Part shown: positions 10,884-17,713 of the stretch, one piece after another | How the letters are laid out: each line of letters opens with the position of its first letter | How positions within the stretch are numbered: position 1 is the stretch's first letter | Origin: Candidatus Hermodarchaeota archaeon | Lineage (GTDB): Archaea > Asgardarchaeota > Hermodarchaeia > Hermodarchaeales > Hermodarchaeaceae | DNA: 17,713 bases | Reading direction: 5' to 3' | Assembly: GCA_016839365.1 (NCBI GenBank) | Contig: JAEOUH010000057.1 | Span: 1-17,713 of the forward strand | Notes under the pieces: model-generated | Seen by the model: only the letters and a program-made list of their open reading frames with translations | Told to the model about the DNA's origin: nothing | The model's database searches: none | Made by a program: the position numbers and the translations under genes

Positions 10884-13136
10884 CTAGGTGTACGGACCGG
10901 GTGTTGTGTCAATTGCATCACGTTGAGTGGACATAGCGTCTATGTAATCTTTGTAGGCTTTCATCATTTCGGGAGTAACGCTGGGTTTAATTTTCGCCTT
11001 TGCATCATCGAAGTGTTTAGCACTGACGGTGGATAATTGTTCTTCGCGGCGGATGGCATACATTCCTGCTTCGCGGACGAGATTGGCAAGGTCGGCACCC
11101 GAATAGCCATCTGTGGTCTTGGCGATTTTCTCGAGGTCAACATCATTAGCGAGTGGCATATTCCGGGTGTGCACCTTTAGAATTTCTAGCCTGGCTTCTT
11201 GATCGGGTGGTGGTACCAAGATGATTCGGTCGAAGCGTCCAGGTCGCAAGAGGGCGCGGTCAATGATTTCTGGGCGATTAGTAGCCGCGATTACGACGAC
11301 GCCTTTGAGCTCCTCCATGCCATCCATTTCAGCCAGTAATTGGTTGAGGACGGATTCATAAACGTGACTGCCTTGCCATTGTCCACGGGCAGGAGCGATA
11401 CTGTCGAGTTCGTCGAAGAAGATGATACTGGGGGCAACTTGTCGAGCCTTCCGGAAAATCTTGCGAATGCCTTTCTCAGATTCGCCAACCCACTTGCTAA
11501 AGATTTCTGGTCCACGAATAGCAATGAAGTTGGCTTCACTTTCAGTAGCAACTGCTTTTGCTAGCAAAGTCTTTCCCCCTCCTGGTGGTCCCACAAGTAG
11601 GATGCCTTTGGGTGGTTGGACACCGACTTTTTCAAACTTTGCGGGAAACTTCAGAGGCCACTCAACGGCCTCACGGAGTTCATTCTCGACATCTTTTAAC
11701 CCCCCAACATCATCCCAAGATACCTTCGGGATTTCTAGATACACTTCACGTAAGGCTGAGGGTTCAGCCCGGCGAAGCGACTCATTAAAGTCATCTCCTG
11801 TGACTTCAAGGCCCTCAATGATATCGGCGGGAAGAGGTTGGTCTTCATCCAGATTAATCTTCGGGAGAATCCTTCGAAGCGTATTCATGGCAGCTTCACG
11901 TGCAATTGCTGAGAGATCTGCCCCTACAAAGCCGTGAGTCGAATCAGCAAGCGCATCTAGGTCCACATCACTCGTTAATGGCATACCCCTGGTGTGAATT
12001 AGGAGAATCTCCTTGCGTCCATTACGTGTTGGTACAGGAATCTCAATCTCTCGATCAAAGCGCCCAGGACGTCGCAGGGCTGGATCCAAGGCGTCTTGTC
12101 GGTTTGTCGCGGCAATGACAATCACTCGTCCTCGGGCTTGAAGCCCGTCCATGAGAGCAAGTAATTGAGCGACGACGCGGCGTTCGACTTCACCTTGGAC
12201 TTCTTCACGTTTGGGGGCAATACTGTCGATTTCATCAATGAAAATGATGCTTGGAGAGCGTTCAGAGGCTTTTTCGAATAATTCTCGGAGACGTTTTTCC
12301 GATTCACCATAGAACTTGCTCATGATTTCAGGACCATTGATGGAAATGAATGTGGCGTCGGATTCGTTAGCCACAGCGCGTGCAAGCAGGGTTTTACCTG
12401 TACCTGGAGGACCATAAAGTAGAACCCCTTTCGGTGGATCAATGCCGAGACGATCAAAGAGGACAGGGTGTTTGAGGGGAAGTTCAATCATCTCCCGAAC
12501 CCGGTCAATAGCTTCATCGAGTCCACCGATGTCTTCGTAGGTAACTAAGGGAGCTTTGACGGTGACATCAACGGCTTCAGGTTGAATTTGAATAATGGTG
12601 TCCTCAGTGATTTTGACCACGCCTTTGGGAGTGGTATTTGTAACAACGAACTTGATTTCGCCAAGGGCAAAGGGCGTGCCTGCACCTCGCATCATGGCTT
12701 CGAAGACAGAGAAATCACCACTGCGGTAAGTGCCAGATCCGGCTGTGCTAATAATATCGCCGGGCGCGACGGGGCGCTGATTGAGACTGGGTTTTACAGC
12801 TTCACCTTCAGCGACAATGCGAACGCCACGTTGAGCGGGAGCCAGTTCCACTCGTTTTGCTGGCGGTGGATCAATACGTTTGACTTCAACGAATTCCCCG
12901 ATTCCTGTACCGGCGTTACTTCGGACAAGGCCATCCATGAAGATTTTACTGGAACCGGCATGGATGGATTGGCCTCGCAAGACCCGGGCACCGGTGATCT
13001 TTTTGCCGGTGATTTCGATGATATCTCCGGATGTGACGCCAAGGCGTTCCATGACCCTGGGGTCGACGCGAACGATTCCTCGTCCAGCTTCATCACTGGG
13101 TAAGGAGACAACACGCAGCTGAATTTTGTTTGACAT
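10884..13136 (-). CDS. cdc48: CDC48/VCP/VAT-type AAA+ ATPase
   Basis: N-domain GRGIVRVD; D1 [25 protein letters not shown]; D2 [24 protein letters not shown]; pore loops KFYG and KWVG; C-terminal PYT. Confidence 0.98.
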
Positions 13137-13559
13137 TTATTCGGTTTCCTCCATTAATTCGGATAAACGCTTACGGACCGATTGGAACTCAGAGGCCATT
13201 AACTGGAAGAGCGCTTCGTATGTATCAAAGTAATGGTCAATCATAGCTTGGAGCAGGCGATCGCCATCCTTTGTTAACCTATAATATCGGCGCATGGGTC
13301 CTCGCCCTTCACTGCGGACTTTGACATCCCCTACGACCCAGCCTTTCTCTGCGAGACGGTTGAGGAGGGGATAGATGGTTCCAGGTTCCATTTGAATACG
13401 CCCTGCCGACATGTCTTCGATAAGAGCGCTAATACGTGCTCCATAAAGGCTTTCCTGCCGTAATAGGTTGAGTACCCAGAACTCAAGAATGCCACGGTTA
13501 ATTTCACGGGTCCATTCACGTATTTTGTTGTAGGTTCTGTCGGTGGGCATTTCGGTCAT
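13137..13559 (-). CDS. PadR-family winged-helix transcriptional regulator, directly upstream of cdc48
   Basis: RGILEFWVLNLL, LYG, PGTIYPLLNRL, GWV, RRYYRLTKDG. Start reassigned to ATG 13559 (GGAG RBS at 13572-13569); its stop abuts the cdc48 ATG. Confidence 0.9.
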   Translation of the reverse strand: MTEMPTDRTYNKIREWTREINRGILEFWVLNLLRQESLYGARISALIEDMSAGRIQMEPGTIYPLLNRLAEKGWVVGDVKVRSEGRGPMRRYYRLTKDGDRLLQAMIDHYFDTYEALFQLMASEFQSVRKRLSELMEETE

Positions 13560-13574
13560 TTTGATTTGCTCCAA

Positions 13575-13598
13575 ATATATAGCTACGCTATATATAGC
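13575..13598. promoter_or_regulatory. Nested palindromic operator (likely PadR site) at the start of the padR-cdc48 transcript
   Basis: ATATATAGC-tac-GCTATATAT (13575-13595) overlaps the perfect 12-mer GCTATATATAGC (13587-13598); it lies ~25 bp downstream of a minus-strand TATA. Confidence 0.65.
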
Positions 13599-13621
13599 TT
13601 CACAATGCAGTAATGCTATTC

Positions 13622-13629
13622 TATTTAAA
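13622..13629 (-). promoter_or_regulatory. TATA box of padR-cdc48 operon
   Basis: Minus-strand TTTAAATA about 63 bp upstream of ATG 13559. Confidence 0.55.
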
Positions 13630-13710
13630 CCCATCGAATTGGCGAAAGCCAAAACCGCCTGTGAGGTTATGTCTGCGAGAAAAATCGGATTTGCACATTC
13701 CTTCCGAGTC

Positions 13711-13726
13711 AGAAAGACTTTAAAAG
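13711..13726 (+). promoter_or_regulatory. BRE/TATA for the divergent surface-protein gene
   Basis: agaaagac-TTTAAAAG about 57 bp upstream of GTG 13783. Confidence 0.5.
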
Positions 13727-13782
13727 CTGCATTAAACATTGGCTCTGCACTCTAAGACCAGTAATAGCAAGGTGGCCGACTA

Positions 13783-14628
13783 GTGAAACTGTCACTTCGC
13801 ATCTGTACGCTCATGATTGCAGTGTTGTTCATGACCTCAGCTATAGGTCTGCAAGGTTTCGTCCCTGCAGCTGCACCGAATATTCAAATCAGCGATGTTA
13901 ATGTACCAACTGAACTTTACCAAGCAGAGAGAGGCCAAGTAAATGCAACAGTCCAAAACCTACTAAATACCTCATTTGACGGGTTTGCTCGTTTTGTGGA
14001 TATATCAGGTGAAATTCGAAGCCAGAGTCCAGTTGACCCACTCAGTGAGTTTGTAAACTTTACCATTGGTCCGGAAGAGACGTTGACAGTTGTCGTTGAC
14101 TACACAGTGAACGAAACAGCAACCCTAGGCACTCACACGGTCACTTTTGAGATTAATGTCGGCGAGTTTTCATTTCTATTTGCCCAGTATCAGATCACTG
14201 TGCTCCCTGTTGCCAGTATCCACTCCGTTGTGCCTGGAAACGTCTTTTCTCAAGATCAAGCTGGGCTGTTGTTAGTAGCAATAGAAAACCATGTAGATCG
14301 AACTAGGTCGGTAAGACTTGATGTCTTTGGACCTAAATTCGTCAATGCTTCAGAAGAAGTAGACCTTGCGCCCGGATTAAATACAGTGGCCATCCCATTA
14401 ATGCCCAACGTCTCTCATGTCTATGATTTTGGCATGTTCACTGCAAACGTTTCATTGTTCTATTTTGACGAAATGATCGGCACTGAAATTGTTACTGTTC
14501 CTGTTGATATGGCGATCCTTAACAAACTCCTAGCGGTTGTCCTACCTGCAGTAATCTTTCTCGTCCTGGTGCTCTTCTATGCACTACGGAAACGCCAGCG
14601 GATACGTGCAGCAATTACGAGCGAATAA
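13783..14628 (+). CDS. Secreted, membrane-anchored glycoprotein with two probable Ig-like (CARDB/NEW3-type) beta-sandwiches
   Basis: Signal peptide; alternating beta-strand patterns (TVQN...TIGPEETLTVVV...GTHTVTF; IEN...DLAPGLNTVAI...GMFTANV); 7 N-x-S/T sequons; C-terminal TM and RKRQR tail. Confidence 0.75.
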   Translation: MKLSLRICTLMIAVLFMTSAIGLQGFVPAAAPNIQISDVNVPTELYQAERGQVNATVQNLLNTSFDGFARFVDISGEIRSQSPVDPLSEFVNFTIGPEETLTVVVDYTVNETATLGTHTVTFEINVGEFSFLFAQYQITVLPVASIHSVVPGNVFSQDQAGLLLVAIENHVDRTRSVRLDVFGPKFVNASEEVDLAPGLNTVAIPLMPNVSHVYDFGMFTANVSLFYFDEMIGTEIVTVPVDMAILNKLLAVVLPAVIFLVLVLFYALRKRQRIRAAITSE

Positions 14629-15307: not shown

Positions 15308-15769
15308 CTATTCTTCGTCCATCATGGATTCAAGGGCTGCCCGGCGCCGTTCTAAGAAGGATTGCAATTCGCCTTGCATTTGAGCACGGATGCCCAGACC
15401 GCCTGAAGCAGCAGCGCCCATAGGGGATGTTGGGGTCTGAGGTGGTGGAGCCGCCAATCCAGGCGAAGCTCCTGTGAGTGAAGGAGACTGTGGCATGCCA
15501 GGGCTAGACGAGGCTGTGACTGGTGGTGGTTGGGGAGCAGCAGTTGACGAGGGAGTCGGAGCCCCCTTTGCCCCACCCATACGGAGAACGGTATCGACTT
15601 GCGTTTCGAGTTTTGCTAGTCGCGTGCGAAAATCATCCATCTGTTTTTCAAGCGAGCCAACACCATTAAGAAAAATCGTTGCCACCCTTTCGAGTACATT
15701 AGCCAGTTCCTCGATCTTTTTGGTGGTATCTTTTTCAGCTGCTAAAAAGTCAAAGCCTCCGAGTGCCAT
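15308..15769 (-). CDS. Hypothetical protein: N-terminal coiled coil, Pro/Ser-rich linker, C-terminal amphipathic basic helix and acidic tail (WASH/WAVE/VASP-like architecture)
   Basis: Clean ATG..TAG ORF with its own TATA; heptad hydrophobics at aa 19-61; PPP runs; ends GELQSFLERRRAALESMMDEE. CDS reality is well supported; function is inferred. Confidence 0.8.
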   Translation of the reverse strand: MALGGFDFLAAEKDTTKKIEELANVLERVATIFLNGVGSLEKQMDDFRTRLAKLETQVDTVLRMGGAKGAPTPSSTAAPQPPPVTASSSPGMPQSPSLTGASPGLAAPPPQTPTSPMGAAASGGLGIRAQMQGELQSFLERRRAALESMMDEE

Positions 15770-15780
15770 GCTGTATCAGT

Positions 15781-15806
15781 TTCAAGTTAACTTGAATAGT
15801 TTAAAA
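15781..15806 (-). promoter_or_regulatory. TATA box plus perfect 16-bp palindrome upstream of the 153-aa gene
   Basis: TTCAAGTTAACTTGAA (15781-15796) lies between minus-strand TTTTAAAC (15806-15799) and ATG 15769. Confidence 0.6.
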
Positions 15807-15899
15807 CCTTGTGGGGTAACGAGTCTGCTCCTAGTAGTTTTAGGGGAAAACTAAACAAATAGATGAACTAACCGCGAAAAGCAGGAGGAAGACGCATCA

Positions 15900-16565
15900 A
15901 TGCTGGCTCGTTCCCAGTATCCACGTTTCGTTAGTTGGATATTGGAACTATTACACCGCCGAACACGACAGACTCGCGTCATCACCATGGATGGTTTGCA
16001 CATTCAAATTTGTCCTCAGGTATTCAATCCGGTCATGGGACGAACCACCCATTTCTTTATTCAGCACATGCAGCTACGGTCGGAAAGCCGCATTTTAGAC
16101 CTCGGGACTGGATCTGGTGCGATAGCAGCCGCTGCAGCTCAAATCTGCCAGTCAGTAACGGCCACAGACATCAGCCCGTATGCGGTGAAATGTGCAAAAG
16201 CAACATTTCGGTTGAATGGCGTAGCAGATCATGTTCGTGTTCTTCAGGGCGACCTGTTTGCCCCCGTAGAGGGTGAGGCCTTCGATATTATCCTGTTCAA
16301 CCCCCCGTATTTGCCAGGTGATGCAACAAGCTGGATGGCCAAAGCATGGTCTGCAGGTTCCAAGTTTGAACTCCTTAGTCGGTTTCTAGAGGACGCTCGA
16401 CAAGTGCTAGCTAAAGACGGTCAGATTCAGGTTTTACTTAGTTCTACCACCTCTATGACACAGATTATATCATGCATGAAACAGAACGGATACAGGATTC
16501 GAATTCTTGGAAAAGGACGGATCCTTGGACCTCTGGAACAGATTTTTTTATTCCAACTTTTTTGA
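15900..16565 (+). CDS. HemK2/PrmC-like class I SAM-dependent methyltransferase
   Basis: LDLGTGSG, TDIS, GDLF, FNPPY; GGAGG RBS. Confidence 0.88.
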   Translation: MLARSQYPRFVSWILELLHRRTRQTRVITMDGLHIQICPQVFNPVMGRTTHFFIQHMQLRSESRILDLGTGSGAIAAAAAQICQSVTATDISPYAVKCAKATFRLNGVADHVRVLQGDLFAPVEGEAFDIILFNPPYLPGDATSWMAKAWSAGSKFELLSRFLEDARQVLAKDGQIQVLLSSTTSMTQIISCMKQNGYRIRILGKGRILGPLEQIFLFQLF

Positions 16566-17582
16566 ATTTCGCCGTAGCTTCCCGAGTAATTTTCCCCAGG
16601 GAACAAAAAAGAGACCAATCAAGGCGATACCGATGATTAGATAGATAGTGTCCATTACCGGGTCAGACCCTCCACCGAAGATTTGTATGAGAAAGGGTTG
16701 GAGAAAGGGGAGTTGCGCCCCCAAAGTGATTATCAGCGCTAAAACGACTTTCCCAAAGAAACAGAATAACAGAGCTTTCCATAGTGGGTATTTGGTTGCC
16801 CCTAGGGCAATGAGTAGAATGTCATCTGGCAGGGGTGTCGCAGCGTAGAAGAAAATCAGAAGCCCGCCATAACCTCGTTCGATTTGCCCGCGAAGCCTGA
16901 GGATTTGTTGCCCTGTAGATGAACCTTCCAGGGATTCACTCTGAGTGCGTCCCAGAAGCCAGGCAACGGTTTCGCCAATGGCAGCTCCCGCTCCTGCGAC
17001 AATACCAAGGAGCAATCCGTAAAGAAGTGTAAAACCTGGTTGAAGGGCGATCAGCAGGAGAACGAACAGATAGGGAATGGGAAAAATTACGGTGAAGTTT
17101 CCAAAGAGGCTTATAATGAACACGCCAATATAGAGACCCAGGGGCCCAAAGGTAGCTAAAGCCCAATTAATAATGGCGTTCATGATATCGAGTACGGATA
17201 GACCGATAAGGACAGGTACCACTAACAGGATGACAAAGAAGGTGACGAACACAAGGAAGCGCAGGGTTCGCTTCACGTCATCAATTTGGACGTGAGCTTT
17301 CCATACTTGGCTGAAGGTTAAATCCTTGCCCCGAAAGACTTTACCTAAGCCCCAGACGAAGAGCACAATTCCAGGGAGTAAATACCCTAATCCAGCAATC
17401 AGCGAGGCAAGTCCTATATTCGGACTAAACAGAAATAATCCAAGGTAATTCAGAAGATAGGGGAGAAGTAGAAGTATACCCAAAACGATGAAAGATCCAC
17501 TGCCCAAGGATAAGAAGAATTTCGCATCCCCTGCACGTTCTTCTAAATTGTCGACTTCGCGGGTTTGTGATGCTTCGGTCAC
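16548..17582 (-). CDS. DedA/VTT (SNARE-associated, TMEM41/VMP1 superfamily) membrane protein with extra N-terminal TM helices
   Basis: FPIPY, GAGAAIGE..AWLLGR, AATPLPDD, FFGK motifs. Start reassigned to GTG 17582 behind a GGTGA RBS; 18-bp convergent overlap with the methyltransferase. Confidence 0.85.
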   Translation of the reverse strand: MTEASQTREVDNLEERAGDAKFFLSLGSGSFIVLGILLLLPYLLNYLGLFLFSPNIGLASLIAGLGYLLPGIVLFVWGLGKVFRGKDLTFSQVWKAHVQIDDVKRTLRFLVFVTFFVILLVVPVLIGLSVLDIMNAIINWALATFGPLGLYIGVFIISLFGNFTVIFPIPYLFVLLLIALQPGFTLLYGLLLGIVAGAGAAIGETVAWLLGRTQSESLEGSSTGQQILRLRGQIERGYGGLLIFFYAATPLPDDILLIALGATKYPLWKALLFCFFGKVVLALIITLGAQLPFLQPFLIQIFGGGSDPVMDTIYLIIGIALIGLFFVPWGKLLGKLRRNSKKLE

Positions 17583-17587
17583 ACAAT

Positions 17588-17713
17588 TCACCCTTGCCAG
17601 AGGATTTTGGTCGTGTGGCTCGTATCGGTTGGAATTATAATCTGTGATGATTGTGGGAATAAAAATTGGGTGGTTAGGAGAAGATGAGCTGAAGAGCACC
17701 AATTATCTCGTAA
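17588..17713 (-). CDS. Possible 3' end of an upstream gene (partial; ...QFLFPQSSQIIIPTDTSHTTKILWQG*)
   Basis: The frame is open from the window edge to a TGA that overlaps the RBS of the DedA gene, an operon-like junction. Confidence 0.4.
   Translation of the reverse strand, partial: LRDNWCSSAHLLLTTQFLFPQSSQIIIPTDTSHTTKILWQG

Follow-up and report, generated by a model that had tools for sequence, protein, structure and literature searches.

A small Asgard protein family with a putative assembly coil, a proline-rich arm and a near-invariant end helix: a possible adaptor of the actin cytoskeleton

Introduction

In the Ena/VASP proteins, a proline-rich region is combined with EVH2, which contains the GAB, the FAB (residues 259-278) and a C-terminal tetramerisation coil (PMC10340426). 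Arcadin-2 is the adaptor of crenactin, as cited in PMC12050087. Protrusions and crawling of Asgard archaea are driven by their eukaryote-like actin cytoskeleton (PMC9834061, PMC13716822). The actin regulators known in them are profilins and gelsolins only (PMC12050087, PMC13716822), and no Asgard protein has been identified as a nucleator, an elongation factor or a bundler (PMC12050087).

Here, we analyse a gene for a protein of 153 residues in a stretch of archaeal DNA of 17,713 nucleotides (called the window). The protein belongs to an undescribed family, present in most Asgard archaea, in which a putative assembly coil is followed by a proline-rich arm and a near-invariant end helix. This layout can be compared with several described systems. 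Like Ena/VASP, it has a coil, here putatively oligomerising, a Pro-rich region and an amphipathic basic helix preceded by Gly; unlike Ena/VASP, it has neither EVH1 nor a WH2-like GAB, its coil is N-terminal rather than C-terminal, long polyproline occurs in some of the Asgard lineages only, and no homology is detectable. Like arcadin-2 and ParR (ParM), which are also prokaryotic, small and non-enzymatic, it has a body domain, a flexible tail and a short terminal helix, for which docking is presumed in the Asgard family. The body of ParR binds DNA, as is predicted also for the integrase-like body of one group of Asgard carriers. However, the genes of arcadin-2 and ParR adjoin actin genes, which the Asgard gene does not do in the 11 families surveyed.

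With the VCA region of WASP the protein shares the order of a Pro-rich part, a basic helix and an acidic end, with Trp present in the acidic end of one sister lineage, and BRK1/HSPC300 and CCDC53/WASHC3 are small coiled-coil proteins too. Against these likenesses, the C helix and WH2 score at background and the CCDC53 matches in Pfam are sub-threshold noise, as detailed below. No Arp2/3 complex is known in the Asgard hosts of the family. The MIM1 tails of ESCRT-III are similar in being flexible, partly Pro-rich and tipped by an amphipathic helix, and Vps4 is encoded in the same genome as our protein; but the body of the Asgard protein is a coiled coil and not the ESCRT-III fold, and the ESCRT-III tails of that genome do not resemble the end helix.

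Results

The gene and its predicted structure

The features of the gene are collected in Table 1. In the AlphaFold2 model of the 153-residue protein, which was built with an alignment of 27 sequences, residues 5-65 form a helix with pLDDT above 90 across residues 20-60, residues 67-120 are disordered with pLDDT below 50, and residues 125-152 form a second helix with pLDDT of 84-90. The initial annotation had described a three-part protein, and the ORF, the layout and the AlphaFold2 parts agree with this description, the layout being kept across the phylum. All of the strings that it quoted are present, namely FLNGVGSLEKQMDDFRTRLAKLETQV (aa 33-58), QPPP and APPP in the linker, GGLGIRAQMQGELQSFLERRRAAL and the end ESMMDEE. 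The Pro runs of the linker are at most 3 long, its SPG, PG and TPTSP positions are kept within the clade of the window protein, and the tail ESMMDEE contains no aromatic residue. Since 64 clusters have the same layout and a broad profile matches in 250 of 301 Asgard genomes, the gene is real and not a chance frame.

Table 1. Positions of the gene, its parts and its putative promoter in the window, and of the integrase-like carriers of the end helix in their own loci (aa, amino acids)
Feature	Position	Strand	Basis or remark
Whole gene	15308..15769	-	153 codons + stop; ATG 15767-15769, stop 15308-15310; ORF list and translation; 64 homologous clusters of the same length
N-terminal acidic/aromatic motif, aa 1-14 (MALGGFDFLAAEKD)	15728..15769	-	Alignments; pLDDT 57 over first 10 residues
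Long helix, aa 5-65, putative homo-oligomeric coiled coil	15575..15757	-	AlphaFold2 pLDDT >90; PDB profile matches
Disordered Pro/Ser/Ala/Gly linker, aa 66-124	15398..15574	-	pLDDT <50; sequence and length vary among families
End helix, aa 125-146, putative docking helix	15332..15397	-	AlphaFold2 helix 125-152; register of 37 carriers; other scaffolds
Acidic end ESMMDEE, aa 147-153	15311..15331	-	Clade-specific; most other families stop after the basic cluster
Putative promoter: TATA-like TTTTAAAC 15799-15806 and palindrome TTCAAGTTAACTTGAA 15781-15796	15781..15806	-	Read from the sequence
Integrase-like carriers of the end helix (f13)	L070:1357-3075; L071:46-1761; L072:124-1788	-; +; +	Three genera; six-frame genome searches

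The element TTCAAGTTAACTTGAA in front of the gene is a perfect 16-bp palindrome that is separated from the ATG by 11 nt, and it may be the operator of an almost leaderless gene. It is also noted that an antisense open frame of 126 aa, at 15474-15854 (+), overlaps the gene over the linker and can be regarded as a by-product of the Pro-codon-rich linker. In some genomes the gene callers could pick this wrong strand, in which case proteomics databases would lack the protein.

Distribution and conservation of the family

The word-indexed search gave 64 clusters that share this layout, at lengths of 136-165 aa, and that, where named, are from Promethearchaeota or Thorarchaeota. With a pan-Asgard profile built from 29 sequences, the family was found in 250 of the 301 Asgard genomes sampled, in 83 of 90 high-quality genomes and in 62 of 70 genera. 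The named members come from Lokiarchaeia and from Thor-, Frey-, Jord- and Hodarchaeota, so that among named members the homologues are in Asgard archaea only. The exhaustive phmmer search against 1.84 billion representatives gave seven matches, including three distant proteins with the same layout and one spurious TPR match, the latter being the sole one without this layout. P0066 (1952 aa, with 9 matches to the C-terminal module) was rejected as an NB-ARC/TPR-repeat protein, the match being spurious because the tail is imitated by its AALES repeats. The family is covered by no entry of Pfam, NCBIfam or the Atlas; the ESM Atlas search gave unnamed archaeal clusters only, and the C-terminal part has no match among the named clusters.

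Four features are universal in the family: the N-terminus has an acidic/Phe motif, a helix of about 60 residues follows, the linker is disordered and rich in Pro/Gly/Ser, and the end helix is present. The window protein has all four of them (an N-terminal [DE]F motif, a helix with an LN[GA]V-type core, the disordered linker and a terminal ELKxLFxRxR helix), with a helix score within the family range. In the N-terminal motif, F6 is invariant even among the distant members, the motif reading elsewhere DDFSELL, IDFGES or DDFFGDD. The VATIFLNGVGSLE core of the long helix is invariant in the clade of the window protein, where the linker is variable and the core of the N-terminal helix reads invariantly VATIFLNG.G.LE; most other families have [FIL]LN[GA]V at this place, and the alignment of the sister clade has an insertion of one heptad in the long helix. 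In the end helix, the residues invariant in the clade are A129, M131, E134, L135, F138, L139, R141-143 and L146. The two strings on whose conservation the initial annotation had relied, FLN and ELxxxLxRRR, are thereby recovered as FLNG and ELxxFLxRRR, invariant in the clade.

The same annotation had also cited the polyproline and the acidic tail, and as features of the family these two are not borne out, both being lineage-specific. True polyproline runs are present in the P0068 subclade and in families f16, f21 and f27, and there are none in the clade of the window protein or in the Frey/Jord-type members. An acidic end is present in 8 of the 37 carriers of the end helix, and in several lineages a strongly acidic tail of up to 50 residues follows the helix. 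The Trp described as missing from the acidic tail is indeed missing from ESMMDEE of the window protein, but not from the tail of the sister lineage f21, which ends ...ARIKKGWDEDG.

The full-length profile gave no longer fused forms, and the helix profile gave proteins of 122-183 aa only, the integrase-like carriers described below having come solely from the six-frame genome searches. In the genome of the window, a second weak family match at G000:C45:89233-89577 (L068:1201-1905:-), a protein of 234 aa, was rejected as a different coiled-coil protein that has no end helix. Its coiled coil is accompanied by a long (Ala-Pro)n repeat and by a second helical part.

The end helix and its portability

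The 37 carriers were set in one register, with the invariant Glu taken as position 0. In this register Glu(0) and Leu(+1), which are E134 and L135 of the window protein, are invariant in 37/37 carriers, phylum-wide. The positions -3, +1, +4, +5 and often +8 are hydrophobic and lie on one face of the helix, at 40-140 degrees, and the basic residues are at -6, +2, +7 and +9. For the window protein this gives a hydrophobic face of M131/L135/F138/L139 with the basic residues R128, R141 and R143, and R142 takes the +8 position, which is hydrophobic in more than half of the carriers. Such a fixed residue pattern suggests that the helix docks on a specific protein rather than binding lipid.

The end helix is not confined to the coil of the window protein. 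In three genera (f13, Table 1) it is present on proteins of 555-573 aa, which start with a Xer-type tyrosine-recombinase domain of ~310 residues (match to Phage_integrase at 50-53 bits, above the cut-off), followed by a tether of Gly/Pro-rich repeats, by the helix (e.g. QMGELKALLARRRKMAD) and by ~50 acidic residues ending with D[LI]PDF. In f16 and f21 the same helix is joined to a different coil, and the f27 protein has two copies of the helix with an acidic stretch between them. Based on its presence on the integrase-like scaffold, on the other coils and in double copy, we infer that the end helix is a portable module, presumably for docking. As a side remark, box I of the f13 domain has the motif TG.QI.E where the catalytic Arg is usual, on account of which the domain may be catalytically inactive.

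In the genome of the window, our gene is the sole carrier of the end helix. Two further matches, one in a Lon-type protease (20 bits) and one in a flavodoxin-like reductase, are internal helices of folded domains and were rejected as chance matches.

Comparison with known families and motifs

The searches for actin-binding families gave no significant match in Pfam, NCBIfam, PDB or ESM Atlas, and no homology to the eukaryotic regulators was detected. The initial annotation had likened the coil to CCDC53 and BRK1. Against Pfam, the N-terminal coil gave sub-threshold coiled-coil families only: CCDC53/WASHC3 (PF10152) is matched by 2 of 27 members with a best E of 0.1, and NPV_P10 (20/27) and FlaC (19/27) rank far above it. 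When the N-terminal profile was compared with all PDB sequences, 188 matches were obtained, of which the best 60 (E up to 0.13) include neither BRK1 nor CCDC53, being generic coiled coils that are mostly trimeric; among the matches listed are reovirus sigma-1, GCN4-pII/adhesin fusions, CoilSer and designed trimers. The PDB search with the single sequence gave no BRK1 either. What is left of this likeness is thus generic coiled-coil matches only, which is the outcome that had been named beforehand as refuting it.

The domains of the other systems are missing as well. EVH1 (WH1) has no Pfam match at E up to 10, and the protein starts directly with the coil. VASP_tetra has no match, and the coil, which is N-terminal, resembles left-handed trimeric coils. 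WH2 (PF02205) has no Pfam match, and neither an LKKV nor a KLRK motif is present in the sequence. With the end-helix profile against PDB at E up to 10, no WH2, no MIM-bearing chain and no other known motif was obtained.

For short motifs, we scored published sequences on a helix matrix made from 24 distinct family helices (37 carriers), with every window of the 3225 ORFs of the genome as the background. The motif sequences were taken as printed in the papers (VASP FAB, PMC10340426; N-WASP C helix and WH2, PMC5609757). The family members score 26 to 50 bits. The human VASP FAB scores 14.0 bits in the full register, with a per-window p of 4.3e-6, and windows as good are present in 3 of the 3225 ORFs. 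By contrast, the N-WASP C helix (-3.9 bits, p 1.0e-3, 565/3225 ORFs as good), the N-WASP WH2 (-12.8 bits, p 1.3e-2, 2404/3225 ORFs) and the two ESCRT-III tails of the genome (-9.9 and -12.9 bits, p 0.6-1.3e-2, 1831 and 2443 of 3225 ORFs) are all at background, and the VASP GAB peptide, with -10.8 bits, is unlike the end helix. The FAB fits the required residue class at 6 of the 9 key positions of the family helix and differs at +1, where it has Met and the family has the invariant Leu.

Among the motif likenesses tested, therefore, that to the FAB alone survives, being measurably above background at the level of sequence. No true family member scores as low as its 14 bits, however, and the genome has two unrelated ORFs that reach the same level. 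Since about 48 windows as good are expected by chance per 1.1e7 residues, i.e., in a human-sized proteome, the likeness is not decisive. Of the likenesses that the initial annotation had proposed for the C-terminal part, the one to the Ena/VASP FAB is thus measurable, and those to the WASP C helix and to WH2 are at background.

Genomic context

To our knowledge, actin and Vps4 are both near-universal in the Asgard phylum, as is the family itself, so that its co-occurrence with either would not discriminate between them. The genome of the window has one profilin gene, and besides actin it has two divergent actin-family genes; of the ESCRT system it encodes two ESCRT-III proteins and one Vps4, which has an MIT domain. 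The presence of actin and profilin, which the initial annotation had presupposed for the host, is thus borne out. The gene itself stands alone, divergent from a gene for a small-domain methyltransferase and convergent with a uracil-DNA glycosylase (UDG) gene. Within the clade the order of the methyltransferase, this gene, UDG, a membrane/secreted protein, PadR, CDC48 and TBP is kept down to ~50% identity, and none of these conserved neighbours points to a partner. In other families, the flanking genes encode a molybdopterin-oxidoreductase-like protein, PGM/PMM, PIG-L, VTT/DedA, a pterin-binding enzyme, ArsA/Get3, a TRAP-beta-like protein, a cytidylyltransferase, ThiI and gamma-glutamyltranspeptidase. 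Across the 11 families surveyed, genes for actin, profilin, gelsolin and ESCRT never adjoin the gene, and in five further genomes the nearest actin-family gene is at least 100 kb away or on another contig.

It is noted in addition that a VTT/DedA-type membrane protein is encoded near the gene at 16548-17702 (-) of the window, at L013:3959-5056 and at L034:2244-3107, i.e., in the family of the window protein and in the distant f18, though not in all genomes of that genus. The canonical actin gene, G000:C21:30609-31622, is cut at the contig end, as it is in several genomes of the same genus (L057-L060), which suggests a recurrent assembly break beside the actin gene, perhaps at a repeat or a second copy. 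A full-length actin of the same genus is 99.4% identical to the partial copy. The divergent actin-family genes form a tandem at G000:C71:16486-17481 and 17629-18636 (L002, L003), with 119 and 111 bits to the Actin profile versus 382 bits for the canonical actin, and the pair is on the same contig, C71, as Vps4, ~26 kb apart.

Discussion

Based on the above results, we propose tentatively that the protein is a small cytoplasmic adaptor across Asgard archaea, with eukaryote-like actin (Lokiactin) as the most likely partner. In this proposal, the 60-residue N-terminal helix would join several chains as a parallel coiled coil, probably a trimer, after which each chain bears a flexible arm of ~55 residues, modelled as disordered. 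The amphipathic basic helix at the end of the arm would dock by one face on a conserved partner protein, as suggested by the conservation pattern, and the oligomer with its docking arms would be a multivalent tether. On actin, the end helix would work in the manner of the Ena/VASP F-actin-binding segment, or of the ParR and arcadin-2 tail helices, which plug into actin-fold filaments, and the oligomer would bundle, cluster or tether the filaments. In the lineages with true polyproline arms, the arms could also feed in profilin-actin. The protein is, as far as the comparisons reach, an analogue of the Ena/VASP, ParR and arcadin-2 systems and not a detectable homologue of them, and it is not a relative of WASH/WAVE/WASP.

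For the actin reading we counted the layout, the invariant E-L core, the confinement to Asgard archaea, the portability, the FAB score, the polyproline lineages and the actin and profilin of the genome, together with the weak binding of polyproline by the Thor and Heimdall profilins (PMC8410842). Against it we counted the lack of any actin-family match, the FAB score below that of the members, the lack of actin adjacency and the short Pro runs in many lineages, together with the report that the Loki profilins do not bind polyproline (PMC8410842). In the co-immunoprecipitation of Lokiactin from L. ossiferum, profilin, five gelsolins and an ARF GTPase were significantly enriched, and the paper makes no mention of a protein of this kind (PMC13716822). 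A more far-reaching form of the proposal is that the family is the missing Asgard actin-assembly factor, an oligomeric hub that would recruit profilin-actin by its arms in the polyproline lineages and bind Lokiactin filaments by the end helix, being the counterpart and possible source of the Ena/VASP EVH2, with the Xer-like carrier coupling DNA to actin as in ParR-ParM; this we consider rather improbable.

Other explanations should be weighed against the actin reading. A serious, though on balance unlikely, one is that the end helix docks on another conserved cytoplasmic machine, e.g., a small GTPase system, the N-domain of CDC48, a chaperone or a translocon-associated factor, the likeness to actin regulators being coincidental. 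Short amphipathic basic helices are a generic docking device, the FAB, MIM1, the VCP-binding motifs and the formin DAD looking similar by eye; chance matches of FAB grade are present in the very genome of the window; and the neighbours are of the housekeeping and membrane kind, with VTT/DedA in two distant families, ArsA/Get3, the TRAP-beta-like protein and CDC48 in the conserved synteny. However, this context yields no specific candidate, the recurring neighbours vary from family to family, and the restriction of the family to Asgard archaea favours a phylum-typical partner. If the partner were the ESCRT ATPase Vps4, the end helix would be a MIM1-type motif for its MIT domain and the protein a multivalent recruiter or regulator of Vps4. 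The hydrophobic spacing of the helix can be fitted by eye over the MIM1 pattern, and the genome encodes one MIT-domain Vps4 alongside two ESCRT-III proteins; but the tails of these ESCRT-III proteins, which are real ligands of Vps4, score at background, the helix profile has no MIM-bearing PDB match at E up to 10, and in no family examined is an ESCRT gene a neighbour, so that this explanation is improbable.

Membrane anchors of the classic layout have a terminal amphipathic helix with flanking Arg/Lys at the end of a flexible linker. The end helix has this layout and a VTT/DedA membrane protein recurs close by in two families, in line with a membrane-targeting helix as in MinD/FtsA that would anchor the oligomer and the f13 integrase-like protein to the cell membrane. 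We regard this as decidedly improbable, because the lipid-binding helices tolerate drift, as opposed to the fixed register with Glu and Leu invariant in 37/37 carriers, and because the acidic tails of up to 50 residues in several lineages would be repelled by anionic lipids. The least credible explanation, and one that we take to be very improbable, is that of the initial annotation, in which the protein is a homologous single-gene precursor of the WAVE/WASH coiled-coil bundle (BRK1/CCDC53) with a WASP-type C helix and an acidic tail. The order of coil, Pro-rich arm, basic helix and acidic end is present, the f21 tail ...KKGWDEDG contains Trp and the f13 carriers have their long acidic tail ending with D[LI]PDF. 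On the other hand, CCDC53 is matched by 2/27 members at E of at least 0.1, neither BRK1 nor CCDC53 is among the best 60 PDB matches, the N-WASP scores are -3.9 bits for the C helix and -12.8 bits for WH2, and most families have no acidic tail; with no homology to the eukaryotic regulators detected, the precursor explanation is largely refuted at sequence level.

Returning to the adaptor that we propose, the family is a near-universal, Asgard-restricted protein of ~150 residues, short and soluble, which has the modular logic of actin-assembly factors. Even if the partner is not actin, the end helix would be a portable, almost invariant docking signal on at least two scaffolds, and identifying its receptor would reveal a conserved element of Asgard cell biology. 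What is new here is the ranking of the rival motif likenesses by score, the integrase-like and Trp-tailed carriers and the negative survey of gene adjacency.

Finally, we note two minor observations on the window. At 13783-14628 (+), a protein of 281 aa without a Pfam family has a signal-like N-terminus, a hydrophobic C-terminal segment and many N-x-S/T sites; being kept in synteny down to ~50% identity, it is likely a surface glycoprotein. At 10884-13739 (-), the gene of the PadR-type regulator ends at 13137 and that of the CDC48 AAA-ATPase starts at 13136, and the conservation of this abutting pair in all relatives examined suggests a PadR-CDC48 operon.
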